DNA of 64,000 nucleotides. It comes from an uncultured virus (IMG/VR IMGVR_UViG_3300039099_000002). Lineage: Duplodnaviria; Heunggongvirae; Uroviricota; Caudoviricetes. Numbering within the stretch: the first letter of the stretch is position 1; the number at the start of each line of letters is the position of its first letter. The notes under the pieces are model-generated. The model was not told where the DNA came from, searched no databases, and saw only the letters and a list, made by a program, of their open reading frames with translations. The position numbers and the translations under genes are program-made. Location of the stretch: IMG/VR virus record IMGVR_UViG_3300039099_000002, one strand, 5' to 3'. This document shows, in pieces, positions 15,309 to 55,430 of this stretch.

Positions 15309-15582
15309 AATATTAAAAATCCCCACATATTATGGGTACAAGAAAAATAAAGATTTGATTTGTTATCTTATAGTCAGACAGGTGGAAATCATGTAATTGC
15401 ACCTTCTGGAGTCTCCGAGTCGTACTCTTTTGTTTTTAGTCCGCCGACTTGGCTAAAAGATAATTTTGATTTATTCAAGGATCTTGTTTGTTGTTTGTGG
15501 TTTTTCATTACCCGCATTTTGTTGTTTGGCTTATGTATTATGCATTCGTAATATTTACTTTTTCTATTAATAATTGGTTGTT

Positions 15583-15960
15583 TTAATCCTCGTCTTCTTT
15601 TTCTGAACCCCAGGCAAAAACAATTTTTTTCTCGCTATCTGTTCGTGCGTCAGGCAGATTTTTTGTTACCTCTCCACAGATTGATGAAATCTGTCTATCT
15701 ATTGTATATTGATCTGCGGGATATCGTAAATCAATCCCCTTTTCTTTGGCGATTCTATTGGACTCTTGGCAGTTAGCTATATACTGTTTGGTGTCATCGT
15801 TGAGGTTTTCGTAGGTGTGGTCTTTTAGTGCCTTAGAAAACTGATAATTATATTGACTCTGCCCACCGTTTATTCTTGTCATATATAATTCCCACGCAGA
15901 AAGTCCGCATTGTGGCAATAATTTAGACAAAGTTTTATCAATCCAAAGTTCTTCGGTCAT
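15583..15960 (-). CDS. putative immunity/partner protein family 1 (paralog of 18457..18807)
   Basis: IDKTLSKL..QC..SAWE.YMT..NGG, FSKALKDHTYENLN.DTKQYIANCQESNRIAKEKGI shared. Confidence 0.7.
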   Translation of the reverse strand: MTEELWIDKTLSKLLPQCGLSAWELYMTRINGGQSQYNYQFSKALKDHTYENLNDDTKQYIANCQESNRIAKEKGIDLRYPADQYTIDRQISSICGEVTKNLPDARTDSEKKIVFAWGSEKEDED

Positions 15961-15961
15961 G

Positions 15962-18000
15962 TTATAAATTTCCTCGCGCTTCAGCATCTAATTTGTTGTT
16001 GTCCATTTGGTCGTTTTGAACAGTTAATTTGCTTCTGTTAAAAACAAGCCCATAATTGTTTGGTTCGTAACTTTTGTTTAGTCTCATTCCATCATAGCCC
16101 TGAATGATGGCAAGCCTACCAGATGTTTTAGCCTTATTGATATCACCTATGAAAACGTCTGCGACTTTCTTGTAAGTTTCTCTTGCTTCTGTTATCAGTT
16201 TTTGAGCTTGTGGCGAAACAACAGCGTTAGAGCCACCAGGACTAGATGTGTCTTTTAGGTAAGAGTTGAATATTCTGACCCCTTCTTTATAAGCATGATC
16301 AGCTTTTGCTTGCACTACAATGCCTTCATAGCTGTCAACAACTTTTGTTCCATCCCTTTTTATGTATTCGTATTTATCGTTTTCTACTTTTTCAATTGTA
16401 AATTTAGGTGGAGCTATGTCATAGGGCATTTTATCTATGCTAACGGAGATAGACTTTTGAGCTTTTGACTCCTTGAATGTCATCTCGATCTCAAATTGAT
16501 CATTCCCCAGCGAGGATGGTTGTATTTTTGTTTTTTAGGAGTTTCAGTCAAATTATTGTTGAGTTTTGTCGAAACAGCGGATCTCGCGCTAGAAAATTTA
16601 CTAGAGTTTGTTGATGCGCGAAGTTGCTGCTCAGAAAGAGAACTGAATAGCTGAATAGGGGCAGGATATTTTGCTTTCGCGTCGTTTTCTTTTTGTGCAA
16701 GCCATGTCTTAAGATCGGATTCAAGTTTCGCCACATCTTGACTGTTTTTTTCTTGATCTCCCCATTTGAAGTCTGCGCTCGTTGCCATTCTTGCGGTCGC
16801 ACTTTTTTTAGCTGGATATCCAGGGTTTGAATATCCGCGCTTAGTAAGAATTTTGTGTGCGTCTTCTGCTTTTTGTGCAGTTACAGGTGTGTCAAAAACA
16901 GTGAGGACGTATATGCCAGTCCCGTATAAATTGTTGTCTTTCTCGCCTGTTGACAAAAAGTTGTTCCCATTTTTAAAGAAGTCAAAGTAAATCTGCTCAC
17001 CCATCGCCCTGAATGACAAATTTCCACCATTTTTAGCTATGTTGTCAACATCGTCCACATTGCCAATTTTAGGTTTGGCATTAAACCCTAATTTTTCGGC
17101 TAAAGTGGACGCAGTGTTGTCATTTAGTGAAGAAAGTTTGGTATTCTTGGGATTGTTATTGTGTGTGTTAACAAAACTATCAGTCTCTTTCTCTAATTTT
17201 TCTGCAAATGTGCCAAGAGAGTCAATGTCTCCGTTTTTTATGGCATCTGCAATGTCTTGGTACGGGTTTTTTGTTGGAGTTGCTGCTGTGGGTGTTGATT
17301 TAGCTGCTGGTGCTGCTGTAGATGTTGCTGTGGGTGTTGATTTAGCTGCTGGTGCTGCTGTAGATGTTGCTGTGGGTGTTGATTTAGCTGCTGGTGCTGC
17401 TGTAGATGTTGCTGTGGGTGTTGATTTAGCTCTATTTGCTATGAAGGACAGCGTGTTGTGTAATTTAGTCCCGCTTGATATTTTATCTGCAAGCCATCCA
17501 GAATAAGTTTTGTGTACGGTATCTAGTTGGACGTTGCAGTTTTTCTTGCTTTGTGCCAAACACGCGTAACCATTTGGACCCCTACAAGACCAGCCTTTTG
17601 AGCAATTCATTTGTGTTTGAGCAAAGTTAAAAAATTCCAATGGTAAATAGTTAACTTTCTCGGATAAATAAAGTGCTATTTGCAAAGACGCAATATACAC
17701 TACGTCTTGTTCAGAATAGGTTAAAACCTCTCTGTTTTTGGGTGTTAGGACAATTTTATCTTTGCTAATATCAAAACCCATTATTAGCTTTTTGCCACCC
17801 ATGCGCGGCGTTTGAAAAATCCCGGATATTATGTATCCAGGGTTGGGATTTTTTAAAATATTAAAATTCTCTATTTTGCTCCCATAATTCTCGTCTACAA
17901 TTTCGTAGACCATCATTTGCATAAATCTTGATTTATCAGACTCACTACCTAAAGAGTCATATTCTTTGGTAATTGTGTCGTGTGTAATTGTGTTTTTCAT
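15962..18000 (-). CDS. polymorphic effector F: shared N-domain + linker + ART-like domain; split by a frameshift at ~16531-16536
   Basis: ORFs 16480..18000 and 15962..16483 join by one base at an A6 run to give PK(K)TKIQPSSLGNDQFEIE, matching [19 protein letters not shown] of the paralog; FRAM, NLYGTGIYV, GYDGM, LVFNR. Confidence 0.75.
17280..17432. repeat. 42-bp intragenic tandem repeat (AKSTPTATSTAAPA)
   Basis: About 3.5 copies. Confidence 0.9.
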
Positions 18001-18073
18001 AATAATTTATAACGCGCTTAAATGAGTAATCAGTTGGTATAATAATTATTACAACAACTGATTGCTAAATCTC

Positions 18074-18328
18074 TTATCCAATATTCATTGATAGCAGTTT
18101 TTCGTGCTGTTTATCAATAGTAATTGGTTCTTGTGACCACTTTAATAAACTACCTAAATCAACTGGCTCTAATGGCTCACTATTGTCGTAGCGTGTGGCG
18201 ACCAAATTATCTCTATCAACTGTGTCTTTTCCCAGATAATATAAGTCCATGCCGCCTCTAGTGCCGATTTTAAACGGGGTTTCTACCCATTGGGCGTTTG
18301 GGTAATCTTCTTTGCTTGCTATTTGCAT
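18074..18328 (-). CDS. hypothetical protein inside effector array
   Basis: ORF 84 aa. Confidence 0.6.
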   Translation of the reverse strand: MQIASKEDYPNAQWVETPFKIGTRGGMDLYYLGKDTVDRDNLVATRYDNSEPLEPVDLGSLLKWSQEPITIDKQHEKLLSMNIG

Positions 18329-18456
18329 TTTTTTTGTTTTTAGTTACTTTTATTTTACTACCTAACTTTGCGTTATTCAGTAGTTATCATAATATAGAGG
18401 ATAATAACTACTGAATAACACAAAAGCAAAACAGAATAGCCAACATTATCTGAAGT

Positions 18457-18807
18457 CTAATCAAAAACAACTTTCTTCTCGTCTTCTGTCCTTGCATCAG
18501 GTAGATTTTTTGTTACTTCACTACAAATTTCACGAATCTGCCTATCCATAGCATCTTTATCTACAGTCTTTCTCAAGTTAATGCCTTTTTCTTTGGCTAT
18601 TCTATTAGATTCCTGACAATTTGCTATATACTGTTTAGTGTCTTCGTTAAGATTTTCGTAAGTGTGATCTTTTAGTGCCTTAGAAAACTCATATTCGTAT
18701 TGGCTCTTTCCGCCATTTAGCCCTGTCATGTACATTTCCCACGCAGAACCGCTGCATTGTGAGAATAATTTGGACAAAGTTTTGTCAATTCCAAGTTCGG
18801 TGGTCAT
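18457..18807 (-). CDS. putative immunity/partner protein family 1
   Basis: Paralog of 15583..15960, directly downstream of effector E. Confidence 0.7.
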   Translation of the reverse strand: MTTELGIDKTLSKLFSQCSGSAWEMYMTGLNGGKSQYEYEFSKALKDHTYENLNEDTKQYIANCQESNRIAKEKGINLRKTVDKDAMDRQIREICSEVTKNLPDARTEDEKKVVFD

Positions 18808-18854
18808 GCTATAAAGTTCCTTTTGTTTGTTTGCCTAATTTGTTCCTCGTCTGA

Positions 18855-21800
18855 TTATTTCAAAGTTCCTCTCGCTTCTTTGTCTAAATTGTTGTTATCC
18901 ATCTGATCATTTTGAACGGTCATTTTGCCTCTGTTAAAAACAAGCCCGAAATTGTTTGGCTGATAACTTTCGTCTAGTCTTAACCCATCATAACCTTGAA
19001 TGAGAGCCAGCCTACCAGATGTTTTATTGCTATAGGTAATATCACCTATGAAAACGTCTCTAATTCTGTCATGAGTTTCTCTTGCTTGATTGATTATTTT
19101 TTGAGCTTGTGGCGAGACAGGAGACATACCATTGGTTAACGTAGCTTTCAAATACTCGTTGTGCGCCCTAACTGCCTCTATATAAGAGTGATCATTTTTT
19201 GCCTCGGCTATAGTATCCTTGTAGCTTTGAACTACTTTTAAGCCATCTCTTCTGGTGTACTCATATTTTCCATTCCCAACTTTTTCAATCGTGAACTTAG
19301 GTGGGGTTAAATCATAAAACAGTCCATTGATTTTGGTGTTAAAAAATTGTTGAGCAGATTTACTTTGTTTTTTGTTGAATTCGATTTCGTACCTTTCATT
19401 TCCTGTTGGAGATGATGCTATTTTTGTTTTTGTAGGCGTGACAGTTAACTTAGAGTTAAATGTATTAGAGATATTGTTCCTTATAGTGCTGTGTAGTAAA
19501 GAGTGCGCTGGGTCTGCCTTCAACTGGCTCTCTGTGAGTGGACTAAAATTTGCCGCACCAGCCGCACCCGCAGGATATTGCGTTTTTGCATCGTTTTCCT
19601 TTTGTGTAAGCCATTTTTGAAGTTGCGACTCAAGTTCTACTACATCTTGCTTGTTCTTTTTATGGTCTCCCCACTTGAAGTCTGCGCTCGTTACCATTCT
19701 TGCGGTTGCGCTGTCAGTGGGTAAAGCACCGGGATTGGAGTATTTGTTTTTATAAAGCACTGCGTGTGCGGCTTGAGCCTTACTCCCAGTTGGAGACGGA
19801 TCAAAAAGGGAAGCGACATATATACCACTTCCATACATATTGTTTCCATCTGCGCCTGTAGCTAGAAAATTGTCGCCATTTTTAAATGTGTCAAATCTTT
19901 TTTGAGAACCCATCCCCCTGAATGTTAAAGTTCCGCCATTTTGGGCAATATTATCAATTTCAGCTACAGTACCAATTTGTGGCTTGGTGTTAAACCCACG
20001 CTTCTCAGCCAAAGTGTATGCAATTGTGTCGTTTTTGCTGGCAAGTTTGACATTATTTGGTTACTATTATGCGCCGTAACTAAGGCTTCAGTCTCTTTTT
20101 CTAGTTTTTCGGCGAACGTGCTAAGAGCATCTATGTCTCCACTTTTAATCGCGTCTGCAATGTTTTGGTATGGGTTTGCTGTTTGTGGCGCAGGTGTGGG
20201 AGGTGTTTGGGGTTTAGGTGGGTTAATTATTTTATCTAAATCCGCTTTTTTGCCGTTGATGAATATGTCAACACCATTTGCTTTTGCCCATGATGCGATC
20301 GCGGGAGTCGGTTGATCTAGGCTATTTTTTGGCGAAAAATGAATCTCGGCAATGTCTGACGGTTTTACACCACCGTGAACTTGGGCTTCAACATATTTTT
20401 TACCTGTACCAGCCCAAGTACCATCTGTAATTCTTGATAGGTCATCAATATTTTTAGCTTTTGCGGCGTTTTGTAAGATTTCCTTATCTTCACCATTCGA
20501 GGCATAATAGATTGAGTAGTGAGACGGCAGCTTATCGCGCTTATACCCATGTCTTGTCATGGGTATTAAGCTTGAAGCGTCAGGTGGTGGTGGATTACCG
20601 TTATTTGTGACATCGCTTGCATACCCTGACTTAAACGAGTCACTTGCAGTAAATGTCATTCTGTCTTTTACTGCGTCTTTTTTGAGTTTTATAGAAATTG
20701 AGCCATAAACCTTGGCTACATCAGAGTGAGATTTGCCATTTAAATCGTTGCTCCCCAAGTATGCAGAAATAGGTCTGTCTGTGTCTAAAGCATTTGTGGG
20801 AATACCATTAGCAAGTTTTTCAACACGGCTACGCGCTGTTAAATAATTTTTATCAAGCAGGTCTGGAATATTGTGAGTAGTTTTGCCAAGCTGGTAAGCA
20901 TTTTTAAATTCAGAACCTAAAATAAGCTCCAGGGTATCGCTTTTACTCACCCTAATGAATGGCTGAGTGTCATTTGAATCCAGGATTTTTTTGACGTTAT
21001 TTTCAGCGTCATCTACGGCCTTTTGTCCCGCATTTTGTATCAGTTCATTTCTTGCATCAACAAGCCCCTTTTTATTTGTCGGGTTTTTATTGGGATTTTT
21101 GTTGCCCAAAATTTTATTTTTTAATGCGTTAATCTTCACCCCAATTGTTGATTGTGCAGGTGCAGGTGTGGGTGCAGGTGTGGGTGCAGGTGTGGGTGCA
21201 GGTGTGGGTGCAGGTGTGGGTGCAGGTGTGGGTGCAGGTGTGGGTGCAGGTGTGGGTGCAGGTGTGGGTGCAGGTGTGGGTGCAGGTTTCGCGCCTATTC
21301 CGAGCGTTGCTGCATTTGCCATGTGCGAACTATGTAAATTTGCTCCAGTTGATATTTGATCTGCAAGCCACCCAGCGTAAGTTGCGTGAGCAGGATTAAG
21401 TGGGTTGTTACAGTTTTTCTTGCTTTGTGCCAGACAAGCAAAACCATTTGGACCCTTGCAAGACCACCCCTTGGTGCAATTCATCTGTTTCTGAGCAAAG
21501 TTAAAAAATTCCAATGGCAAATATTTGACTTGCTCCGATAATTCCAGAGCCATTTTCATTGCCACATAATATGTCTCACTCTCTTCGGAGTGACTTAAAA
21601 CATCTATATTTTGAGGGGCTAAAACAATTTTGTCTTTGTTAATATCAAAGCCCATTATCAGTTTTTTCCCTCCCATACGCGGAGTTTCAAAAAAGCCAGA
21701 TATTATGTGTCCAGGGTTAGGTTTTTCCAAAATATTAAAATTTTCTATTTTGCCACCATAGTTTTCGTCTACCATTTCGTAGACCATTTTTTGCATGAAT

Positions 21801-21874
21801 CTTAATTTTTCTGACTTGCTATTCAAAGAGTTGTATTTGCTGGTAATTGAGTCTTGTGTAATTACGTTTTTCAT
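18855..21874 (-). CDS. polymorphic effector E: shared N-domain + (PAPT)n + DUF3626-like + ART-like domain; split by a frameshift at ~20059
   Basis: [36 protein letters not shown] (DUF3626-like); adding one C gives [21 protein letters not shown] matching paralog [24 protein letters not shown]. Confidence 0.75.
21153..21287. repeat. 12-bp intragenic tandem repeat (PAPT)
   Basis: GTGCAGGTGTGG, about 11 copies. Confidence 0.95.
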
Positions 21875-22123
21875 TGCGCTTATAAATGTATTGTCTGCTA
21901 TTTAAGTAAAGTATATTTACAAAATTGTATCATACCCATTTGTTTTTGTCGCCGTTAATAACAGCAAATTGCAACATAAAATTTCCTTATTCTGTATTTA
22001 TGTCGGTATTATTAAATTTGTCTACGTAATTTGTATTACTAAAAAGTGATTTTAATGCTTGCTTTTTTGCTTAAAAATAGTATTATAAATGCAAGAAGAA
22101 AAGAAAAAATTAAACAAAATAAA

Positions 22124-22497
22124 ATGGGAAATTAAATTACTCTGATACCACAGATTTATTTGAAGCGGCGACTATGTACGCCTTGAGACTTGATGGATAT
22201 AAATACAGGAAAGAAGAAGGGTTTGATGACTATAAAAAATACAAAGAATTGATGGATGGCGAAGAAATAAAAGACGAAGAGTCGTTGCCAACACTATTTT
22301 TCCTTCAGCGGGATCTAGCCAAAGGTCAACGTGAAGCCAAACTTTTTAAAGGGTTCTGGACAATATTTCTGAAATCAATAAAACTAACAGCAGAAATACC
22401 AGAAAAATATCAAAACGAAAAATACATCAAACAACGGAATGAAATTAAAAAAGACTTGGGTGAAATAACAAAAGAGGCGGGAAAATTAGCCAAATAG
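22124..22497 (+). CDS. putative immunity/partner protein family 2 (1-bp frameshift just after ATG 22124; open from 22174)
   Basis: ALR.DGY.Y, PTLFFLQRDLAKGQ shared with 24540 and 25589; LNYSDTTDLFEA aligns to LDYSDFTDLFEA; convergent on effector C. Confidence 0.7.
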
Positions 22498-22540
22498 GGA
22501 GATAAAGTAGATATCCTAGATTAAAAAACAGTCAAATAAA

Positions 22541-24394
22541 TTACGCCTTTGAAGATATATGCTTGGATTTAATTCCTTCAAGCATTACCACAAACTCATT
22601 TTCCTTGTCGCCATAAAATGGTGTTTTTCCGCTTCCTGGGATAGCTTCGTGAAAATATGCGCCGAATACCCTATGAATTGGCACAACCTGCGAAGTTAGC
22701 TCTGTTGTACTAGCGACATATACTTCTTTGAATATGGACGTAGATTCCATTGAGCCACGTTTTATATATGAGTTGTCGTCTCCAACTTTTGAGTTATAGA
22801 TGTCTGTAACATTTTTGCCCTCTGTGCGAAGTAAAGTTATAGTGCCATCTTTGTTTTTGTTGGGAAAATCAGTTTTTGACAGCATCTCATAAGTAAATGC
22901 GTGATACGCCGTCAAAGTGTTATTATATATCTCTTTTGTATGTCCCTTTTTCTGATTTTCCGAAACAGCTTTATATTGGTTCTCTGAAATAGCACGACTA
23001 AATTTGCCCTTCCAATACAAATCTTCGGGAGGAACATTTCTTTGTTTTGACATAAAATACTTCGCTGCTCTTGGGTATCTTCCCCAAGACGTATTTCCTT
23101 GTCCAGCCATCCAGCTTTCTAAGATACCATAATCGCCACCACCACTATCATTGTTCACATACTTCTGAAAATCGTACATTGTTGAGTCCGAGCCGCGCAA
23201 ATTATCAAATTCTTTGTCATTTTCATCAACAACTTTTGTAAAATCTGCGGAGTCAAAGTCTTTTGATTTTTGTTTAAATTCTTTCGGGAATTTTTCTGTA
23301 ATTCCTGCTGCTCTTATTCCTACAGTGTGTCTTGTAAAGTTGCCGATATAATCATCATTCCATTTGTCGTCATCTAGAGTCTTGCTGATGTCTGCGACTC
23401 GCTTCATTTCATCAAGTCTACTACCTATTATTTCTTGATCTTCTTTGCTGAAAATGCCATTAAGGTTGTCTTTCTTGCTAACCAAATCATTTATTTGGGT
23501 TACTACCTCTTTGTGTGTTAATTTACCAAAATATTCTGCACCATCTGGGTTCACTTTTGTATCTTTCATGCTCCATAAATCCAGCGGGTATTTGTTCCAA
23601 AATTTAGAATCTTTTTTAGCACCCTGCGCTCGATAACCAAGAGAACCGCCATTGTCTATCCGGTAAACCTTGCCATCGTTGCCAAGCATAATGTTGTCTT
23701 TTTCTAGTCCAACAACATCCCAATTACCCAAAAGTGCATCCGCAGCAAAATGTTTTTTAATCTCGCTCTTGATTAAGTCTTTTTCTTGTTGTGTCCCGTT
23801 TTTATTTATCTCGGCTAAATCCCTGCCTTCTACATATTCAGCAAGCTTCGTTGGCTTACCGCTGGCATCTTTGTAAACTTTGTGATTAGGGACGTTGATG
23901 CCTAGAGCTTGGTATGCACTATCTGCGATCGCCTCATTTTCCAAATGCTCTGGACTGCTGCCATTTTTCATCACATACTGCTTGCCAGTCACAGGATCTT
24001 TGACGAGTTGTGCGCCTGTCGTGCCACCAAGTTTTTTGACAACGACAAGATTATCTAAATTGTCTGGGAACTTGCTATTGTTTTTAAATTCTGGCTTGTC
24101 CGCTGGCTTAACTATGGCTTTATTTTTATTCTTTTGATCTTTTAGCCAGTCAATATAAGTGACATGATTTTGACTCAAGCTACTGAAGCAATTTTTTTTA
24201 GCACGAGACAAGCAAGCATATCCGTTTTCGCCTTTACAAGACCACCCAATAGTGCAGTTCATCCGCTTTTCAGCAAACTTAAAAAATTCTATCGGATAAT
24301 AATTTGTTTTTTCCGAAAAAGAACTAACTAGTCCTAAGCTCAAAAAGCACAAAGATTCATTTTCGCTTTGATTTAAAACATCTAGATTTTTCAT
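22541..24394 (-). CDS. polymorphic effector C: truncated shared N-domain + PI3/4K/HipA-like kinase + R-S-E ART-like domain
   Basis: LGGTTGA, YVMK, LENE, LLGNWDVVG, DNIM, RIDNGGSL; TLLRTE, MESTSI, ENEFVV. Confidence 0.75.
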   Translation of the reverse strand: MKNLDVLNQSENESLCFLSLGLVSSFSEKTNYYPIEFFKFAEKRMNCTIGWSCKGENGYACLSRAKKNCFSSLSQNHVTYIDWLKDQKNKNKAIVKPADKPEFKNNSKFPDNLDNLVVVKKLGGTTGAQLVKDPVTGKQYVMKNGSSPEHLENEAIADSAYQALGINVPNHKVYKDASGKPTKLAEYVEGRDLAEINKNGTQQEKDLIKSEIKKHFAADALLGNWDVVGLEKDNIMLGNDGKVYRIDNGGSLGYRAQGAKKDSKFWNKYPLDLWSMKDTKVNPDGAEYFGKLTHKEVVTQINDLVSKKDNLNGIFSKEDQEIIGSRLDEMKRVADISKTLDDDKWNDDYIGNFTRHTVGIRAAGITEKFPKEFKQKSKDFDSADFTKVVDENDKEFDNLRGSDSTMYDFQKYVNNDSGGGDYGILESWMAGQGNTSWGRYPRAAKYFMSKQRNVPPEDLYWKGKFSRAISENQYKAVSENQKKGHTKEIYNNTLTAYHAFTYEMLSKTDFPNKNKDGTITLLRTEGKNVTDIYNSKVGDDNSYIKRGSMESTSIFKEVYVASTTELTSQVVPIHRVFGAYFHEAIPGSGKTPFYGDKENEFVVMLEGIKSKHISSKA

Positions 24395-24539
24395 ATTCTT
24401 GTTTAAATAAATGACTGTATACAGTAAGTTAAGCAGAGATAATATAGTTATTGTATCATGTTTTTAAATTGCTATTTATTTATGTTTGTTTTTTGTCTAC
24501 AAAACAGTACAATAAAAAGACAAATAAAAAAGAAATAAA

Positions 24540-24923
24540 ATGCAAAACCTAGATTATTCTGATTTTACAGATTTATTTGAAGCCGTTACCATATTTGCTC
24601 TAAGATTTGACGGCTATACGTACAGAGAAGACAACAAAGACTTTAGTGATTACAAAAATTACCAACAATTGATGGACGGAAAAGAAATAAAAGACGAAGA
24701 CTTGTTGCCAACACTATTTTTTATTCAGCGGGATCTTGCTAAGGGTCAACACGAACCAGACAGCAAACTTTTTGGGATTTTTTGGGCATTATTTTTGAAA
24801 TCAACAAAACTGCCAATAGAAATATCAGAAAAATATCAAAATGAAGAACACGTTAAGCAGTGGAATGAAATTAAAAAAGATTTGGGGGAAATAACAAAAG
24901 AGGCAGGAAAATTAACCAAATAA
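24540..24923 (+). CDS. putative immunity/partner protein family 2
   Basis: Paralog of 22174 and 25589; convergent on relic D. Confidence 0.75.
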   Translation: MQNLDYSDFTDLFEAVTIFALRFDGYTYREDNKDFSDYKNYQQLMDGKEIKDEDLLPTLFFIQRDLAKGQHEPDSKLFGIFWALFLKSTKLPIEISEKYQNEEHVKQWNEIKKDLGEITKEAGKLTK

Positions 24924-25272
24924 CGAATTGCGATTTAATCAGTATTGCTTTTTTGGCTCTTGAGGATATGTGCTTAGATTTAATACCTTCAAGCATTACT
25001 AAAAACTCATTTTCATTATCATCAAAAAATGGAGTTCTGTCGCTTCCTGGGTCGGTGCTATTAAAATATGTCCCAAACACTCTATCCCTGCCTTCTATAT
25101 ATTCAGCAAGCTTCGTGGGCTTACCGCTGGCATCTTTGTAGACTTTGTGATTAGGGACGTTGATGCCTAGAGCTTGGTATGCACTTTTTTGCATGAATCT
25201 TAATTTTTCTGACTTGCTATTCAAAGAGTTGTATTTGCTGGTAATTGAGTCTTGTGTAATTACGTTTTTCAT
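24871..25272 (-). pseudogene. internally deleted effector relic D
   Basis: In-frame mosaic: first 29 aa identical to effector E, then kinase fragment SAYQ...EGRD, then ART tip RVFGTYF...ENEFLVMLEGIKSKH. Confidence 0.85.
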
Positions 25273-25527
25273 TGCGCTTATAAATGTATTGTCTGCTATT
25301 TAAGTAATGAATATTTATGAAATTCTATCACGCTTGCTGTTTTTTGTCTCTGTGCCTATATACAATGAGTTACATAAAGTTAGTATAATTATTGTATCAC
25401 GCCTTTAATTGAATTTTTTACACAACTTTAATACCGTTTCCAAAATAGACCCTTGTTCTCGCTTGAGAATTGTCAATAAATTTGATTTTTTGTTATTAAA
25501 TATTTTAAATTTTTTACCACTAAATGC

Positions 25528-25556
25528 TTGCGTTTTTGTCTAAAAAATAGTATAAT
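25528..25556 (+). promoter_or_regulatory. sigma70-type promoter of family 2 partner gene
   Basis: TTGCGT-17-TATAAT; related copies at 22059-22086 and 24486-24513. Confidence 0.65.
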
Positions 25557-25588
25557 AAAAACACAAACAAAAAACAAAAAACAAAAAA

Positions 25589-26023
25589 ATGATAAGTTTA
25601 GAAGATTTTGGTAGTGAGTTTTGGTATAGCAGTAGGAACTTCAACAGACTATTCAAGGATGTAAGTGAATTTGCATTAAGCTTTGATGGATGGAAGTATT
25701 CAGCAGAAAATAAGGATTTTACGCCTCGATTAATGAGGAAGAATATAGAAGCATTAGAAGAGGGCAGAGAGATCCCTGAAACCCAATTTGTGCCACAACT
25801 GTTTTTCCTTCAGAGAGGTCTTGCTAAGGGACAATATGAAATAAATGCCAAAAATTACAAGATTTTTTATGAGCTTTTCTTAAAGTGTTTAGAAATAAGC
25901 GACGATATAGAAGAAGGGTACAGACAAGAGGAGTATTATGAAAAATGGAAGAAAAAAAAGAACAATTTGCAAGAAATAATTAAAAACGTAAAAAACATAC
26001 TGGAGTCAGTAAACTGGAAATAA
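25589..26023 (+). CDS. putative immunity/partner protein family 2
   Basis: FALSFDGWKY, PQLFFLQRGLAKGQ; convergent on effector B. Confidence 0.75.
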   Translation: MISLEDFGSEFWYSSRNFNRLFKDVSEFALSFDGWKYSAENKDFTPRLMRKNIEALEEGREIPETQFVPQLFFLQRGLAKGQYEINAKNYKIFYELFLKCLEISDDIEEGYRQEEYYEKWKKKKNNLQEIIKNVKNILESVNWK

Positions 26024-26121
26024 CAATATTTAACTAAAAAATACACAAATTTATCGTGTATTTTTTAGTTAGAAGACCGCGACTCTAATGTATTGTCTTT
26101 CCCGTTATCCTGCTTTTCTGA

Positions 26122-26203
26122 CTATGGTTTTGACTTAGATTTATCGCTAGATTCATGATAAACATCAACACCTTCTAGCATGGCTACAAACTCATTTTCA
26201 ACA
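26122..26203 (-). pseudogene. orphan alternative C-terminal tip of effector B
   Basis: ENEFVAMLEGVDVYHESSDKSKSKP* duplicates the end of 26204 gene (ENEFVAMLEGVSVYHKSSDY*). Confidence 0.75.
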
Positions 26204-28900
26204 TCAATAATCGCTAGATTTATGATAAACACTAACACCTTCTAGCATCGCTACAAACTCGTTTTCACTGTTACCAGCAAACATACCTTTGTTATCTGTT
26301 TCAGTCCTTGAATTAAAGTATGTTCCAAATATTCTGTGTATTGGCACTTTTTGAACTGTTACTTCTGTTGCTGTTCCGACATAAGTTTCCCTCACCAAAG
26401 ATGTAGACTCCATTGCGCCACGATCAATTTTGCCAGTGTCACCAGGTTTAAGATTGTACAAGTCTGTTACATCTTTATCCTCTGTGCGGATAAGTGTTAT
26501 AGTGCCGTCTTGGTTTTTGTTTGGAATATCCGCTTTTGATAGCATTTCATAGGTAAAGGCGTGCATTGCGGTCAACGTTTCATCAACAGTCTTTTTATTC
26601 CATCCGAACCCCTTTGGTGGACTTTGGGGCAAAATTTCGTAATTTCCTCCTGCGGAACTTTCGCCATTTCGCCAGTAATAAGAATCCTTTGAAATATTTC
26701 TTTGATTTGCGAAGAAATATTTTACTGCTTGAGGGATATCATTCCAGGAGTCACTCGCTTGCTGAGTTGCCCACTCAGTAATAATAGTAAAATCTCCTTT
26801 GTTTTTGCCCATGTATTCTTTGAGATCGGATACTATTGAATTTTTGCCGCGCAAATTATCAAAGTCGTTCCCCTTTTCATCAACCATTGTTGTAAAATAA
26901 TCATCAATGGAATTTGTAGACTTTTGTTTAAACTTATTTGGCAACTTGTCTGTAATCCCTGCTGCTCTTGTACCAACAGTATGCTTTGTGAAGTTACCGA
27001 TGTAGTCATCATTCCACTTGTCTTCATCCAGCGTTTTACTGATGTCTGCGACTCGCTTCATTTCCTCAATTCTGCCGTCTATTATCTCTTGGTCTTCTTT
27101 GCTAAAAATACCCTTTAGCTTATCTTTCTTTGACACCAAATCGTTTATTTGGTTTACCACTTCTTTGTGAGTTAAGTCGCCAAAATATTCTGCACCGTCT
27201 GGATTTATGGATTTATCTCTCATACTCCACAAATCTAGTGGATATTTATTCCAGAATTTAGGATCTTTTTTAGCACCCTGCGCTCGATAACCAAGTGAAC
27301 CGCCATTGTCTATACGGTAAACCTTGCCATCGTTGCCAAGCATAATGTTGTCTTTTTCTAGTCCAACAACATCCCAATTACCCAAAAGTGCATCCGCAGC
27401 AAAATGTTTTTTAATCTCGCTCTTAATTAAGTCTTTTTCTTGTTGTGTACCGTTTTTCATTATTTCGGCTAAATCCCTGCCTTCTACATATTCTGCTAGT
27501 TTTACATCCTTACCGTTAGGATTTTTATAAAGTTTGTGGCTGGGGACGTTTATGCCTAAAGCTTGATATGCACTATCGCCGATCGCTTCATTTTCCAAAT
27601 GCTTTGCGCTGCTGCCATTTTTCATCACATACTGTTTACCAGTTGCGGGGTCTTTAACTAGCTTTGCGCCTGTTGTACCACCAAGTTTTTTGACAACAAC
27701 AAGACTGTCTAAATTATCTGGGAATTTACCATCGTTTTGGGGTGATTTAGGTGCGGGGTTGTCGTCCGGTTTAACCGTAGATGTTGGATTAATATCAGGT
27801 TTATTCGTAGGCGTTGGCTTAATATTAGGTTTATTCGTAGGTGTTGGCTTAATATTAGGTTTGTTCGTAGGTGTTGGCTTAATATTAGGTTTGTTCGTAG
27901 GTGTTGGCTTAATGATCCCAAGAGCCTTGGCTTCGTCCATGTGACCCTTGTGAAGTTTAGCCCCTTTCCTTATTTGGTCTTTTAGCCAGCTAATATATGT
28001 TTTATGGTTAGGATTCAGATTGTTGTTACAGTTCTTCTTTGTTTTAGACAAACAGGCATAACCATTTTCACCCTTACAAGACCAGCCAACGGTGCAATTC
28101 ATCTGCTTTTGTGCAAAGTCGAAAAACTCAATCGGATAGTAGTTGGCTTTTTCTGAGAAAGAGTTAACTAAACCCAGACTCAAAAGATATAAAGACCCGC
28201 TTTCGCTATTGTTTAATACCTCTAAATTCTGCGGTGCTAAGACGATTTTACTATCATCTATATCAAAACCCATTATTAGTTTTTTACCGCCCATACGTGG
28301 CGTTTCAAAGCCTCCAGATATGATATAGCCAGCTTTTGGCTTCTCTAAAATCTTAAAATTTTGTATCTTGCCTCCATAGTTCTCATCAACTATTTCATAA
28401 ACCATAGATGCCATAAAATCGGGCTTTTCGGTATCACTTAATGAGTTGTATTTATCGTTAATTCTAGTTTTTAAATCTTGCTCCGAAAAAACATAATTTC
28501 TCTTGTTTTTTTCAATATGATCTGTATCTACTGCTTTGATTCCGCCAAACCTATCCTCTGGCATTTCACTTAAATAGGCTTCTTTGGCTTCTAATTCGGT
28601 GAAAAAACCAATCATGTATTTATGCTCGTCAAAATTTCCGTCACCGTCAAGCTGCTCAATTTCAAAAACCAGACCAACATTTGATGGGTCTGCTATATAG
28701 CTGGGCGAAACATAACAATCAAGAGTTTCTTTGTCCGCCCCAACATATCCCCTGATATGCCCATAACAAATTTTTAGCTCCCTTTCGTGAGGTGTACCCA
28801 CAAATCTTTTATCACCTGGGAAATACTCGATGCCAAGTTTTTTGTTAAAAAAAGGTATTATTTTCTTAGCTGACGCATAATCAAGCGTGCTATTTTTCAT
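26204..28900 (-). CDS. polymorphic effector B: InPase-like + shared N-domain + linker + kinase + R-S-E ART-like
   Basis: YGHIRGYVGADKETLDCYV, FDEHKYMIGF...AKEAYL (InPase); kinase and ART motifs as in C; GGAGGA RBS before ATG 28900. Confidence 0.8.
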   Translation of the reverse strand: MKNSTLDYASAKKIIPFFNKKLGIEYFPGDKRFVGTPHERELKICYGHIRGYVGADKETLDCYVSPSYIADPSNVGLVFEIEQLDGDGNFDEHKYMIGFFTELEAKEAYLSEMPEDRFGGIKAVDTDHIEKNKRNYVFSEQDLKTRINDKYNSLSDTEKPDFMASMVYEIVDENYGGKIQNFKILEKPKAGYIISGGFETPRMGGKKLIMGFDIDDSKIVLAPQNLEVLNNSESGSLYLLSLGLVNSFSEKANYYPIEFFDFAQKQMNCTVGWSCKGENGYACLSKTKKNCNNNLNPNHKTYISWLKDQIRKGAKLHKGHMDEAKALGIIKPTPTNKPNIKPTPTNKPNIKPTPTNKPNIKPTPTNKPDINPTSTVKPDDNPAPKSPQNDGKFPDNLDSLVVVKKLGGTTGAKLVKDPATGKQYVMKNGSSAKHLENEAIGDSAYQALGINVPSHKLYKNPNGKDVKLAEYVEGRDLAEIMKNGTQQEKDLIKSEIKKHFAADALLGNWDVVGLEKDNIMLGNDGKVYRIDNGGSLGYRAQGAKKDPKFWNKYPLDLWSMRDKSINPDGAEYFGDLTHKEVVNQINDLVSKKDKLKGIFSKEDQEIIDGRIEEMKRVADISKTLDEDKWNDDYIGNFTKHTVGTRAAGITDKLPNKFKQKSTNSIDDYFTTMVDEKGNDFDNLRGKNSIVSDLKEYMGKNKGDFTIITEWATQQASDSWNDIPQAVKYFFANQRNISKDSYYWRNGESSAGGNYEILPQSPPKGFGWNKKTVDETLTAMHAFTYEMLSKADIPNKNQDGTITLIRTEDKDVTDLYNLKPGDTGKIDRGAMESTSLVRETYVGTATEVTVQKVPIHRIFGTYFNSRTETDNKGMFAGNSENEFVAMLEGVSVYHKSSDY
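27790..27912. repeat. 30-bp intragenic tandem repeat (KPTPTNKPNI)
   Basis: About 4 copies. Confidence 0.9.
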
Positions 28901-29150
28901 TATTTCTGTCCTCCATTTTTTTGGATATTTTGTTGTAAACTGCAAGCAATTTTAGCCACTTCAAAAATGACATTTCTTGCCAGTATTTTAAATTTGCAAA
29001 ATTATCGCCATTAAGATGAAAAGTTATCTCTAGCCAATTGTCATAATTAATAAATAATGGCGTTTGGTTCAAAACTTTGCGCCATTCATTTTTATTAAAT
29101 CTAATGCGATCGCGTGAACTCAAAAAATAAGCAACACATTCGGACTCAAA
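28890..29150 (-). CDS. tail assembly chaperone frameshift extension (gpT-like)
   Basis: Frame open from TTT at 29150 overlapping the stop of 29146..29826; no ATG start. Confidence 0.55.
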   Translation of the reverse strand, partial: FESECVAYFLSSRDRIRFNKNEWRKVLNQTPLFINYDNWLEITFHLNGDNFANLKYWQEMSFLKWLKLLAVYNKISKKMEDRNNEK

Positions 29151-29826
29151 ACGAGCGCAGGGTTAAATAAACCCTGATATAGTCCTCCCCTGTAAGCTCA
29201 TAAAAATATGTTTGCACTTCTGCCCAGTTTGTAGGCTTGCCATTAATCTTTGTGACTGTTTGGCAAGCAAGCTTTAGATATTGCTCAACGCTAGTTATCG
29301 CAGTAGTAGAACTGACTTTTTCTATTTGCTCAATATCTTTGTTGAGTACCTGGCGAAAAACCACGGTGTCCCCATTTGTAAGCTTGACCTCTTTAGGGAT
29401 AAATCTATCTCCGGCTTCGTTTTCTGTTGCCTCTTCTTCGACATCCATGCTGCAATTGCCTGACTCAATATAGGTTACATTTAGTAGTTTCATGAAAAAC
29501 TCTGACAGCTTCGAGTCATCCCCACTGCGAATCTCGGACGGTATTTTCTTTGCTTTTCCCCAAGAAAGGCAGCATCTTTTACCGATTTCTCTATAAAAAA
29601 TAGCCGTAGTCATTCCAGTGCCAGACTCTGTTCTAGATATAGCCCCTGGCAATTTTTCTGCTGCTATTAAATCAACGGCGTTAGGCTTCTTAAAAACCGC
29701 GTCCAGTCCACTTGATAATTGAAATTTTAACAACTCAATGTTGGGAGCAGTGGCTTTATTTTTTTCAGAAATGTTTGTCGCCACTATTTCTTGCTCGTTG
29801 TCGTTTACTTCTGTAATCTTCGCCAT
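29146..29826 (-). CDS. tail assembly chaperone (gpG-like)
   Basis: Between tube and tape measure; two similar halves (LSSGLDAVFKKP..DL / LTNGDTVVFRQV..DI). Confidence 0.6.
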   Translation of the reverse strand: MAKITEVNDNEQEIVATNISEKNKATAPNIELLKFQLSSGLDAVFKKPNAVDLIAAEKLPGAISRTESGTGMTTAIFYREIGKRCCLSWGKAKKIPSEIRSGDDSKLSEFFMKLLNVTYIESGNCSMDVEEEATENEAGDRFIPKEVKLTNGDTVVFRQVLNKDIEQIEKVSSTTAITSVEQYLKLACQTVTKINGKPTNWAEVQTYFYELTGEDYIRVYLTLRSF

Positions 29827-29903
29827 ATATTTAAAGGATGTTGTGTATTAAAATTATTTTATCACTAAGTTTTAACAAAAATGTCAAACACTACTTGCAG
29901 TGC

Positions 29904-30035
29904 CTAATTTTTCTTTGTTTTGTTGGCTACCAATTTCTCTTGCTTTTGTTTGACCGTTGGGGTAAAATTTTGCTCCGCTTCATAAAGACTTTGCAAAAAA
30001 GAATTAATTTCTATTGATTTATTCTGGTTTTTCAT
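29904..30035 (-). CDS. 43-aa ORF coupled to the restored stop of effector A (candidate partner)
   Basis: MKNQNKSIEINSFLQSLYEAEQ...; ATGA overlap at 30032-30035. Confidence 0.4.
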   Translation of the reverse strand: MKNQNKSIEINSFLQSLYEAEQNFTPTVKQKQEKLVANKTKKN

Positions 30036-30076
30036 TGAGTTTTCTCTGTTTTTTTAAGTAAATTTTCTGCGGATTC

Positions 30077-30239
30077 ACCTGAGTTCGACCTAAATTAAAA
30101 AGCTCAAAGTGAGTAATAGTAAGACTTTTCTCAATAATTAGTAATTATTGAGAATAAAATTTCTTTGGCTAAAAGTCTCTAACTCTCTAACTCTCTTCCC
30201 ACTTGCTTTCTAGCGGATTTTCTTACGTCGAACTCAGGT
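30077..30239. mobile_element. ~163-bp MITE with terminal inverted repeats
   Basis: CACCTGAGTTCGAC (30076-30089) / GTCGAACTCAGGTG (30227-30240); removal restores the effector A frame. Confidence 0.7.
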
Positions 30240-31847
30240 GGTTGCAGGTTTAGTTACAGGGTCAACCTCTTTTAAGTGTATTTCATACCCGCTATCAGAT
30301 TTTTTAAAGCTAGTCACATTAAAATTGGTGCCTGGTCTGAATAAAACCTCTTTTTCTTGCCTACTATCTGAAATATTTGATATATCTTTCCCTGTTTTAG
30401 ATTCAATTACATACTGCAATTCTCCTCTAAACTTGCGATCGCCGGAACTAGATGTACTTGTGAAACTTTTTTCTGTAATTATACTACCGGGTTTGTACGT
30501 ATTTTCTATATCTGAGTTACTCATATTTTTTGGCATTTTAGTCCCTCGAAGAACTGTGCCAATAAAATCAGGCAATTTATTGAGTGCGGATGTCGTCATC
30601 CTGATGTCGGCAATCGTGTCATTTTCTAGCTGATGCTTAGATCTATATTCTCCAGCAGATTTCATAATGTCTATTTTATAAATAGCCTCAGAATCTTCGT
30701 TATTTCGCAAATACGTGTTCATGTGATCAAAGCTTGTTTGCGTGTAAACTTTTAAAGAGGCTAATTCAGCTTTTGTCATGTTGGGGTATTGTTTCTGTAA
30801 GTCATCAGAAACACTACTTAGCGCAACCACTCTCCTGCTGTTTGGCTGAGACAGAAGCCTACCTTCATACTCCTTTGATTCCATGTCTGATACTTTATAC
30901 AATCTGTAATCAGACGGCAATGAGATGTTTTTATCAGACTTTTCGTAGGCATCAAGTCTATCTTGTTTGTCCGATATTTCTTTTATTTTCCTGGTTGCAT
31001 ATTTGCTGTTTGGATTATTTTTTAACTTTTCTTTATTTTCTGATAATTCAGAATTTAATTCTTTTCTTGCTTTGTCTATATTATCCTTAAACAATTTTTT
31101 ATCTTCGTCATTTTCTGGTTGTAACAACTTCTCACCTCTACCTGTTTTCCTAAGTAAATTTACTGTTGCTTTAGATTTAGTTGCAGGTTTAGTTGCGGGG
31201 TTAGTTGCGGGGTTAGTTGCAGGTTTAGTTGCAGGTTTAGTTGTGGGTTTAATTGCAGGTTTAGTTGCGGGTTTAGTTGCGGGTTTAGTTGCGGGTTTAG
31301 TTACGGCTTTTTCTAAGTCTTTAAATAAATCAGATTCGGCACTAGCATTTTTTGCTAACCACTGCATATATTGTGAGTGAGTTGGATTCAACTCATTGTT
31401 ACAATTTTTCTTTGATTTAGACAGACAAGCATAACCATTTTGCCCCTTACAAGACCACCCGACTGTGCAATTCATTTGCTTTTGAGCAAAACTGAAGAAT
31501 TCTATTGGAAGATAATTAGTTTTGTTTATGTTGCCAAAAGATAGTGATCTTACAGCAAGATATATTTTCTCTATATCGTCGTCAATTATTTCTAGGTTTT
31601 GTGGCGTTAATACTATGTTGCTCCCATTGATTAAAAAATCTATTTTTAATCGCCTGTTCCCTACTCTTGGAGAGTGAAAATATCCAGAAATATTTGGCAA
31701 TTCTATATGGGTTATATTTAAATTCTCAATTACGCCCCCATAATTTTCATCTACTATATCAAAAACCAAAGCAGACACAAATGGTGTCAAACCATCTGTG
31801 TCTAAGTTTTTAAATTTTTCTTCAAGATGCTTACTTGAAAATATCAC
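30234..31847 (-). CDS. polymorphic effector A: shared N-domain + (KPAT)n + VIP2/C3-like ADP-ribosyltransferase
   Basis: YT...MNTYLR, SALNKLP, VLRG, SFTSTS, QEKEVLF (R-STS-ExE); true start uncertain. Confidence 0.85.
   Translation of the reverse strand: MIFSSKHLEEKFKNLDTDGLTPFVSALVFDIVDENYGGVIENLNITHIELPNISGYFHSPRVGNRRLKIDFLINGSNIVLTPQNLEIIDDDIEKIYLAVRSLSFGNINKTNYLPIEFFSFAQKQMNCTVGWSCKGQNGYACLSKSKKNCNNELNPTHSQYMQWLAKNASAESDLFKDLEKAVTKPATKPATKPATKPAIKPTTKPATKPATNPATNPATKPATKSKATVNLLRKTGRGEKLLQPENDEDKKLFKDNIDKARKELNSELSENKEKLKNNPNSKYATRKIKEISDKQDRLDAYEKSDKNISLPSDYRLYKVSDMESKEYEGRLLSQPNSRRVVALSSVSDDLQKQYPNMTKAELASLKVYTQTSFDHMNTYLRNNEDSEAIYKIDIMKSAGEYRSKHQLENDTIADIRMTTSALNKLPDFIGTVLRGTKMPKNMSNSDIENTYKPGSIITEKSFTSTSSSGDRKFRGELQYVIESKTGKDISNISDSRQEKEVLFRPGTNFNVTSFKKSDSGYEIHLKEVDPVTKPATT
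31177..31305. repeat. 12-bp intragenic tandem repeat (KPAT)
   Basis: About 10 copies of TTAGTTGC(A/G)GG(T/G). Confidence 0.9.
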
Positions 31848-31863
31848 AAGAACTCCTGGTAAG

Positions 31864-31921
31864 TATGAAACTCAGTCACTTTAGTGCCGAGAGGGAAACG
31901 ACACGCGCGGTTTTAACCGCA
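31864..31921 (+). mobile_element. isolated IS200/IS605-like left-end remnant
   Basis: GAAACTCAGTCACTTTAGTGCCGAGAGGGAAACGACACGCGCGGTTTTAACCGC, same layout as 61700-61755. Confidence 0.5.
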
Positions 31922-31930
31922 TTGATTTAC

Positions 31931-32347
31931 TTATAAATCTCCAACAGCAAACTCAAGTTCAAGCATTGCCACTCCGCTACCACTACCACGCTTAACATCT
32001 GGGCGCTTAATTTTAGAAAGAATGCAGCCTTTGTAAACAACTGGTGGACCATAATTTTCTACGTCTGGGCAGTTTTTTACCGCTTGAACAACAATCGAAA
32101 ATGGATCTTGACAGCTGCTTTCAATTTCCTCAATCAAAATTTCATGATCAGCGGCATCGTATGGTAAACGCAAAACCAAGTCACTAATCATTCGCCTTCC
32201 GGTGGTGAAATAGCTTTTGTCCTTTAGTGCGTCTGGATATTTTGCTGTTTCCCTCGACACCTCCCCCCCGCTCTTTTCTGTGACTGCTAACTGGAGGAAT
32301 GGTCCCCCTATTTGAACAATAAAATCTGACTCATTTTGAATTGACAT
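31931..32347 (-). CDS. tail tube protein
   Basis: 138 aa directly after sheath; SGGE, YKGCIL, MLELEF pattern. Confidence 0.8.
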   Translation of the reverse strand: MSIQNESDFIVQIGGPFLQLAVTEKSGGEVSRETAKYPDALKDKSYFTTGRRMISDLVLRLPYDAADHEILIEEIESSCQDPFSIVVQAVKNCPDVENYGPPVVYKGCILSKIKRPDVKRGSGSGVAMLELEFAVGDL

Positions 32348-55346: not shown

Positions 55347-55392
55347 AATTTTTGCAGTTGTGTTTTTGTTTTGTGTTTGTTGACTATACTGT

Positions 55393-55421
55393 ATTTTACA
55401 ATGGTTAACAATTAAAGTCAA
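55393..55421 (-). promoter_or_regulatory. class I repeated promoter of dnaX
   Basis: TTGACT-17-TAAAAT, spacer GTTAACCA. Confidence 0.7.
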
Positions 55422-55430
55422 CACTATTTT

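Follow-up and report, generated by a model that had tools for sequence, protein, structure and literature searches.

Proteins that are delivered by phages decide the first minutes of an infection. To our knowledge, no carrier domain other than MuF has been recognised for the polymorphic toxins of phages. T4 Alt carries a short capsid-targeting peptide, which is cut by the prohead protease. Both MuF toxins and polyvalent proteins were described as loaded into the head and injected together with the DNA, like T4 Alt (as stated in PMC5576092 and PMC5512222). For the prophage MuF toxin Bxa, it was reported that the protein Bsi blocks the toxin (according to PMC11699363). The present work deals with an array of six related units in a DNA stretch of 64,000 nucleotides, called the window here, from an uncultured virus of the Caudoviricetes (IMG/VR record IMGVR_UViG_3300039099_000002). 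The array occupies positions 15,583 to 31,847 and encodes proteins in which a shared N-terminal domain (N-domain) is combined with variable enzyme-like domains (heads), among them predicted ADP-ribosyltransferases (ARTs) and a kinase-like domain. We favour the interpretation that these proteins are effectors which are packaged in the virion and injected, on a carrier that is not MuF.

The array and its carrier domain

The array was confirmed: six paralogous units, designated A to F, are located on the minus strand at the places given in an earlier note on this DNA, are clearly delimited and are codirectional with the late tail genes, with the tail tube on one side and the tape measure on the other (Table 1). 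All-against-all blastp linked the full N-domain among A, B, E and F at E values of 1e-45 to 1e-95. Unit C matches the other N-domains in the second half only (51-55% identity, E 1e-25 to 1e-28), and D is a relic with 82% identity to amino acids 1-38 of E1, 97% to amino acids 159-192 of C and 61% to amino acids 564-617 of C. Tandem Repeats Finder identified perfect or near-perfect repeats, different in each unit and in frame, in four of the six, which agrees with the claim of the note that most units have a linker of their own; in C and D the program identified none. The tethers of A, B, E and F are rich in Pro, Thr, Ala and Lys, and the copy number of the F linker varies among the database copies P0003, P0004 and P0005. 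The count of six units has to be qualified insofar as only A, B and C are intact, while E and F are each one split gene.

Table 1. Features of the array and of its flanks in the window (nt, nucleotides; aa, amino acids)
Feature	Position	Strand	Linker repeat	Description
Mu-type portal	39089-40504			
Tail sheath	32362-33840			phrog_17610 and phrog_23, ~1e-22
Tail tube	31931-32347	-		Upstream flank of the array; phrog_5102, 1.9e-6
Leader	31848-31924	-		Conserved, ~80 nt, tube stop to A start; 79% identity to Nodularia leader
Unit A	30234-31847	-	31176-31310, 12 nt x11.2	N-domain (aa 1-180), (KPAT)n linker, coiled region, predicted VIP2/Alt-type ART (aa ~353-528)
x226	29146-29826	-		226 aa, located between A and B; possibly a tail chaperone or a partner of A
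Unit B	26204-28945	-	27768-27913, 30 nt x4.9	InPase (aa 35-145), N-domain (aa ~150-340), (KPTPTNKPNI)n linker, predicted kinase-ART cassette
Hairpin	26031-26071			18-bp stem, terminator-like, between convergent B and i144
i144	25589-26023	+		Candidate immunity protein of B cassette, convergent
Relic D	24871-25272	-		133-codon mosaic; first 38 aa of E-like N-domain and two C-like cassette fragments
i127	24540-24923	+		Intact, beside relic D; orphan immunity candidate
Unit C	22541-24394	-		4-Cys module (second N-domain half), predicted kinase-ART cassette; no repeat linker
i107	22174-22497	+		Candidate immunity protein of C cassette, convergent
Unit E	18855-21874	-	21159-21287, 12 nt x10.8	E1 (19964-21874) and E2 (18855-20012); intact in relatives
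j116	18457-18807	-		After E; candidate partner of E/F terminal domain
k84	18074-18328	-		Downstream of E; candidate partner of DUF3626 domain
Unit F	15962-18000	-	17284-17431, 42 nt x3.5	F1 (16480-18000) and F2 (15962-16483); continuous reading in P0005 and P0002
j134	15583-15987	-		After F, just upstream of tape measure
Tape measure	12204-15326	-		Downstream flank of the array; phrog_167, 6e-12

The N-domain comprises about 175 amino acids, with 30 invariant columns in an alignment of five sequences. It is rare: a word-indexed search identified 12 proteins, and an exhaustive profile search of 1.84 billion representatives identified 33 at E <= 0.001. The whole domain is present in 15 of the 33, and most of the others match only the last ~50 positions, which correspond to a module with four cysteines in the spacing C-x5-C-x3/7-C-x6-13-C (4-Cys module). 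The C-terminal ends of the homologues vary and include ART, InPase plus ART, methyltransferase and metallopeptidase-like regions, among others, so that they are not invariant. An AlphaFold2 (AF2) model (pLDDT 79.3, pTM 0.74) predicts two helices against a four-stranded sheet, followed by a poorly defined acidic-aromatic segment and a three-stranded Cys module with a helix. Among viral proteins, the N-domain is matched best by those of Nodularia phages (E 8.6e-5 and weaker); two of these proteins end in ParB/Srx and DUF3626. A tblastn search of 50,697 phage records gave no match to the N-domain, nor did a hidden Markov model (HMM) of alignment A1 match Nodularia phage 2AV2 at E <= 10. A subfamily represented by P0042 was identified as homologous to the N-domain of the array (hhalign probability 96.6%, E 5.5e-10). 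In P0011 and P0012, homologues of unit A, the N-domain is accompanied by a region that resembles a GNAT acetyltransferase by eye; this likeness is not backed by a Pfam match.

From these profile and sequence comparisons, the N-domain is not MuF. PF04233 was absent at E <= 1 from all units and N-domain homologues, and the N-domain profile compared to 20 MuF N-regions gave an hhalign probability of 0.1%. Scans of 53 ORFs of the window and of the related virus records G001, G002 (83% complete) and G003 did not detect PF04233 either, with a control that matched in 8 of 14 genomes. The view of the earlier note that no MuF gene is evident next to the portal, and that the N-domain is not recognisable as MuF, was therefore borne out. 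The 4-Cys module was identified in fusion downstream of Portal_Mu in P0024, P0031 and P0035, and behind InPase in P0028.

The scaffold/protease of the window (37356-38978, minus strand, 540 amino acids, phrog_976) contains three acidic-aromatic F[ST/A]E motifs (LEFSED, SNFAEH and IEFSEN). Similar sequences are seen in the tails of the portal fusions and, in the N-domain, in the segment that immediately precedes the Cys module. As a link to the scaffold/protease, the F[AST][EQ] motif was given no weight; with 23 sites in 16,646 residues it is too common.

Heads and their candidate partner genes

For unit A, the head scored 39.2 bits with PF03496 (cut-off 23.4; E 6e-10) and matched PF01129 with 6.6e-7, and the motifs VLRG (R), TSTS (S-T-S) and EKE (E-x-E) are present. 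By sequence, it is an R-S-ExE ART of the Alt/VIP2 clade.

Units B and C share a cassette of about 500 residues (62% identity over 676 amino acids between the two proteins), which in B consists of a PK-like kinase (amino acids ~411-640), a helical region and an R-S-ExE type ART (amino acids ~780-913). The cassette had no significant sequence match in Pfam, PHROGs or PDB; the highest-ranking PDB entry was the ABC1-type kinase 5yjz (E 0.7). An AF2 model of amino acids 411-913 of B, based on an alignment of 48 sequences, reached a mean pLDDT of 94.9 and a pTM of 0.93. The first ~230 residues of the model were matched by VIA to Helicobacter pylori CtkA (3akj; Z 14.0, 205 residues aligned, rmsd 3.5), followed by CotH (12.2), Rio1 (12.1) and HipA (11.8), and Foldseek gave at least 500 PDB matches at E <= 1e-3, those listed being protein kinases. 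In 47 sequences, the residues G24, G27, K43, E54, D119, D126, N134 and D147 (numbered as in the first sequence of alignment A3) are invariant; they correspond to the G-loop, the Lys, the Glu, the catalytic Asp/Asn and the metal-binding Asp. The N-terminal part of the cassette is thus, as modelled, a bilobal protein-kinase-like fold. The last ~130 residues contain an invariant Arg, S-x-S and E-N-E (47-48 sequences), located on or beside strands of the model, and the language-model neighbours of B residues 700-913 fall into ADPrib_exo_Tox clusters at 0.94, with 19 of 30 matches in that set. This part is likely an R-S-ExE ART.

A total of 205 homologues of the cassette were identified, of which 120 were listed. 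In 63 of these 120 (own count), the cassette is fused behind PF04233 (Phage_Mu_F); NUDIX and InPase precede it in 2 each. The N-domain of the array or its Cys module precedes the cassette in 8 of 118 homologues. The N-domain therefore takes the place of MuF on the same cargo. The kinase domain of the cassette is widespread, in genes annotated as 'ADP-ribosyltransferase' in Pseudomonas, Yersinia and Aeromonas phages and in Gordonia phages, and in 75 genome loci from Cyanobacteria, Chloroflexota, Verrucomicrobiota, Planctomycetota, Saccharibacteria and others.

In addition to the cassette, B contains an InPase domain (PF18823, 5.1e-22), which was not part of the earlier note. Also new are the probable start of B, an ATG 15 codons downstream of the listed TTG as judged by comparison to P0006, and the single-nucleotide splits of E and F. 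Unit E is interrupted by a 1-nt deletion (CCC to CC, at about 20059-20060) when compared to the intact P0001 (978 amino acids) and G001 (972 amino acids). F is interrupted by a 1-nt deletion in a run of A (A7 to A6, at 16531-16536), with 677 amino acids in the intact P0002; its copies in P0003 and P0004 carry a different homopolymer shift. Both breaks may be real mutations or assembly errors. Programmed frameshifting was rejected as an explanation: the two sites are not alike, the frame is continuous in the relatives, and no clean X XXY YYZ heptamer is present around the A-run.

Read as one protein, E consists of the N-domain, a (PA/PT)n linker, a probable DUF3626 domain, a second linker and a clade-restricted terminal domain, and F consists of the N-domain, a linker of 42-nt repeats and the same type of terminal domain; F2 and F1 were both related to E2 by blastp. 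The middle domain of E scored 15.4 bits with Pfam DUF3626 (PF12294), which is sub-threshold given a cut-off of 27 (E 0.0099). By tblastn, 86% of the query aligned at 43.7% identity (E 7e-61) to proteins that are annotated as containing DUF3626 in nine Nodularia phage records. SopF from Salmonella contains DUF3626 and is an ADP-ribosyltransferase (as stated in PMC6682159 and PMC10333799). Intact E gave no significant sequence or profile match in PDB. For the terminal domain shared by E and F, 2 homologues were identified in the length range searched; no Pfam match was obtained at E <= 1, hhalign against the other two ART sets gave probabilities of 0.2-0.3%, and tblastn of E2 against 50,697 phage records gave no match. 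The language model placed ART-PolyVal (PF18760) nearest, at 0.89, 0.88 and 0.87, which is below the 0.9 bar of the tool, so that 'ART-like' is a sub-threshold lead for this domain.

Among the heads proposed in the earlier note, the VIP2-like ART of A is therefore well founded. For B and C the kinase fold was established in the model and the ART remains likely; for E the DUF3626 assignment is probable, and the second, 'ART-like' domain was reduced to the lead just given. For F, what stood is the domain shared with the terminal end of E, and here too 'ART-like' is a lead.

Each of the three head types, the cassette, the DUF3626 domain and the E/F terminal domain, is paired with its own conserved small gene, as judged from sequence comparison. 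For the cassette these are the i genes, with i127 being 69% identical to i107 and 43% to i144 (blastp). In a locus of Nostoc linckia (L011), an i homologue with 32-33% identity was identified in the same convergent position beside the cassette, and an HMM of the i family, applied to 85 loci, identified partners in L011 and within this phage group but nowhere else. For the DUF3626 domain, k84 is 38% identical (E 1.6e-7) to gp020 of a Nodularia phage, which directly follows the DUF3626 gene gp019. For the E/F terminal domain, j116 and j134 are 76.5% identical (blastp). The protein j116 has no family in the Pfam, PHROGs and PADLOC scans, and j134 is kept in G001 despite the absence of F.

A complex model of the B cassette with i144 gave a median ipSAE of 0.84, as compared to 0.00 for the best of three controls. 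The ipSAE mark is reached by 116 of 157 solved complexes and by 2 of 215 mismatched pairs, counts which are only rough here (own alignments). The runs agreed in at least 76% of the contacts, and the partner pLDDT was at least 81. The confident part of the predicted interface includes residues 432, 437 and 484, which belong to the R, S-x-S and E-x-E set; i144 is therefore placed over the presumed catalytic cleft. The model supports binding of i144 to the ART of the B cassette.

Proposed delivery, rival explanations and genome setting

In the Nostoc linckia z4 prophage, the genes are arranged in the order TerS, TerL, portal, N-domain-kinase-ART protein, i homologue, MuF-like gene, protease and capsid. 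The N-domain of this protein belongs to the P0042-type subfamily, and the locus (L011) is part of a bacterial scaffold that also contains an excisionase-like gene. Three genes of Nodularia phage kac65v161 are located between the portal gp014 and the scaffold/protease gp030: gp017 is an InPase with 45% identity to B (5e-29), gp019 consists of an N-domain (HMM 7.7e-8) and DUF3626, and gp025 contains an N-domain (HMM 7.9e-9). The portal-side position of the N-domain genes in both relatives argues for a MuF-like role at the head or portal over a tail-specific one, and the position of the array in the tail operon is probably secondary. DUF3626 was also identified on proteins annotated as 'minor capsid/head' in Streptococcus phage MissE2 and Lactococcus phage TP901-1. 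Phage CL131, for which a virion proteome is described (in PMC6293099), was not among the matches in the phage collection that could show relatives of the N-domain or of the heads. A third N-domain protein of kac65v161, gp198 (L010, 19869-20939), has a Gly/Ala-rich C-terminal half in place of an enzyme; its gene is surrounded by non-structural genes at a distance of about 8 kb beyond the tape measure.

In the proposed mechanism, a carrier N-domain made of an alpha/beta subdomain, a flexible acidic-aromatic segment and a 4-Cys module would be connected by a repeat tether to one to three heads. The N-domain would do the job of MuF by attaching the protein to the portal or to the interior of the procapsid during head assembly, and the heads would be ejected with the DNA into the next host. 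There they might modify host proteins by ADP-ribosylation or phosphorylation and so serve in takeover, in counter-defence or in the killing of non-immune cells. In the producing cell, the heads would be kept inactive by their cognate small proteins: i for the kinase-ART, presumably by covering the ART catalytic cleft, k84 for DUF3626 and j for the E/F domain. Recombination among the repeated N-domains, linkers and partner genes would reshuffle the set between closely related phages.

Turnover of this kind is visible among the relatives. In G001, the flanks of which are 99.5% identical to the window, F is missing, as are the kinase-ART end of B and i144, and E is intact. In G002, B is truncated as in G001 and F is kept; in L001, B is whole. 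In a relative of 138 kb, all five N-domain matches are located in this one array.

Several points weigh against this interpretation. Virion packaging is deduced from fusions and gene neighbourhoods, and we likewise infer ejection, enzymatic activity, targets and neutralisation in vivo. The array of the window lies in the tail module and not beside the portal. The N-domain has no fold relative in PDB that would hint at portal binding: the best Foldseek match had an E value of 0.22, and among 48,161 chains compared by VIA the best Z score was 4.6, with none >= 5. C lacks the first half of the N-domain, and with E and F frameshifted, at most A, B and C are whole in the window. For the cassette, the ART is likely and not proven, because hhalign against the A-type ARTs gave a probability of 0.3% and the fold searches never reached the ART part, with kinases filling the lists. 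An i homologue was found beside the cassette only in L011 among 75 genome loci, and none beside the distant MuF-borne cassettes. Finally, MuF toxins were tied to temperate phages (as stated in PMC5576092).

A first alternative is that the proteins are not borne by the virion, and that the array consists of late toxin-immunity modules which act in the producing cell or are released at lysis. They might serve in host takeover, addiction or superinfection exclusion, or as exotoxins against neighbours, with the N-domain used for metal or nucleic-acid binding, oligomerisation or regulation. Toxin-antitoxin and exclusion systems are likewise built on a toxin with a tightly linked neutraliser, Bxa, the MuF toxin of a prophage, was reported to act after release from cells (according to PMC11699363), and gp198 of Nodularia is encoded outside the structural modules. 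However, the joining of the cargo to MuF or portal in most relatives and the position of the relatives' genes in the head module are left unexplained by this alternative, and none of the 12 proteins tested matched a PADLOC defence family. It is considered rather unlikely.

A second alternative places the proteins in the lumen of the tail, loaded in the tube with or on the tape measure, in the manner of cargo of extracellular contractile injection systems (eCIS) or of Hcp cargo of the type VI secretion system, with the N-domain as a tail-loading signal. The tube gene and the tape-measure gene flank the array on its two sides and have its orientation, the leader before A is 79% identical to the leader of a Nodularia tape measure, and j134 abuts the tape measure. 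The fusions speak for the head: the Cys module is joined to portals and not to tube or tape-measure proteins, and the same cargo is carried by the head protein MuF. In the relatives, N-domain genes are located portal-side and far from the tail genes, and gp198 is found among non-structural genes. In addition, folded proteins of 500-980 amino acids fit poorly in a lumen which is already filled by the tape measure. Tail-lumen loading is therefore quite improbable. In a related version, to which we likewise attach only little probability, the N-domain would be a second, MuF-independent route of virion loading, by which a single phage could carry an entire set of exchangeable enzymes. In this lineage the route may have been moved to the tail, so that the cargo lies beside the tape measure and is fired through the tube. 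If this were true, a true phage would carry a multi-effector, eCIS-like payload together with matching self-protection genes.

A third alternative, that the array is a decaying remnant of duplicated genes which have largely lost their function, is very unlikely. It is favoured by D being a relic, C truncated at the N-terminus, E and F frameshifted and B truncated in G001 and G002. Against it, A, B and C have long intact frames in which every catalytic residue is conserved, E is intact in P0001, G001 and G002, and the partner genes are intact. The frameshifts of E and F are single-base homopolymer changes that may be assembly errors, and relics next to intact units are typical of active polymorphic loci.

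The array of virion-packaged, injected effectors, as favoured here, points to a second family of carriers, present in phages of bloom-forming filamentous cyanobacteria. It provides three testable pairs of head and partner, one of which is the kinase-ART cassette, found in at least 205 proteins across many phyla; its kinase fold and likely ART were deduced after sequence searches of Pfam, PHROGs and PDB had given nothing. If packaging is true, the N-domain could be a handle to load foreign proteins into capsids, and the array would be a compact model for the reshuffling of an injected phage arsenal.

The window belongs to a large tailed phage (myovirus) of roughly 140-170 kb, probably with a filamentous cyanobacterial host (Nostocales). 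This size is suggested by the nearest virus records, which comprise 62 kb (CheckV, 39% complete) and 138 kb (83% complete), and the host by the relatives, Nostoc linckia and Nodularia phages. Elsewhere in the window, genes for the major capsid protein, baseplate and fibres, DNA polymerase III alpha, a clamp loader and thymidylate kinase were identified, as was an anti-repressor-like Bro-N gene; no integrase was seen in the window. The clamp-loader gene (53910-55424, minus strand) bears a C-terminal DUF4326 domain, and a ClpP-type protease gene (40591-41151, minus strand) adjoins the portal, besides the phrog_976 scaffold/protease. Between capsid and head-tail adaptor, a gene for 151 amino acids (34957-35412, minus strand) contains a 36-nt tandem repeat at 35088-35222 (x3.8, 98% matches), which codes for PTVVSKPEIPTI and is of the Pro/Thr-rich kind seen in the array tethers.

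The leader before A matches the sequence directly 5' of the tape-measure gene in nine Nodularia siphophage records (L009, 14723-14800), in which the tape measures are very long (3,310-3,404 amino acids); the tape measure of the window has no similarity to that of Nodularia. The leader matched no Rfam family and its fold is not unusual (z-score -1.08). It could represent a late-gene leader or a promoter region that these phages have in common. For x226, no family above the cut-off was identified in Pfam, PHROGs or PADLOC, nor any similarity to Nodularia gp179; the gene is conserved in G001, L001 and L002.

Comparison with described systems

The closest described systems are the MuF polymorphic toxins (as presented by Jamet et al. 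2017, PMC5576092, and for Bxa in PMC11699363). Here as there, a conserved N-terminal module is combined with variable C-terminal toxins, ARTs among them, and with small neighbouring immunity genes, which are candidates in the array. The kinase-ART cassette is identical in kind to that carried by MuF proteins, and it is shared across carriers, namely MuF, NUDIX and the N-domain. Like Bsi and the immunity proteins of the MuF pairs that were modelled (in PMC11699363), the candidate immunity protein of the cassette is predicted to cover the active site. Unlike the MuF toxins, the array has no MuF domain, several paralogous carriers are present per genome in place of one, and the tandem-repeat tethers vary from unit to unit. 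The array is located in the tail module and not beside the portal, where the N-domain genes of L011 and kac65v161 are found. The partner genes of the cassette are convergent and not co-directional, and the phage is large, with its own DNA polymerase III.

With the polyvalent proteins (as described by Iyer et al. 2017, PMC5512222), the array shares the presence of at least two unrelated catalytic domains per polypeptide and the predicted entry into the host with the DNA. In B, these are the InPase PF18823, the likely ART and a reduced protein kinase, and in E, the probable DUF3626 domain and a second domain. In the same source, PF18823 is given as a domain of virion-packaged polyvalent proteins, cassette-like neighbouring ORFs are described for kinase-bearing polyvalent loci, and polyvalent proteins are stated to be scarce in cyanobacteria. 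In contrast to them, the proteins of the array are much smaller, with two to three heads, and are spread over paralogues with a common carrier and cognate neutralisers.

For T4 Alt, the likeness lies in unit A, which is predicted to be an R-S-ExE ART of the Alt/VIP2 clade (PF03496) behind an N-terminal non-catalytic part. Delivery with the DNA, as summarised for Alt in PMC5512222, is proposed for A as well. However, the front of A is a folded domain of ~175 amino acids with a repeat tether and not a short peptide.

Compared to the classical polymorphic toxins, such as Rhs, CDI and MafB, the array lacks a trafficking domain for a secretion system, its presumed vehicle is the virion, and its heads are modifying enzymes (ARTs and a kinase), whereas theirs are mostly nucleases. 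Both combine a conserved end for trafficking with a variable end for toxicity, and in both, cognate immunity genes (candidates in the array), orphan remnants and turnover by recombination are seen. The polymorphic toxin architecture suggested in the earlier note is recognised here in the N-domain, the variable linkers and heads, the cognate small genes, the gain and loss of units, and in relic D with the intact i127, which by analogy is an orphan of the kind typical of polymorphic toxin loci.

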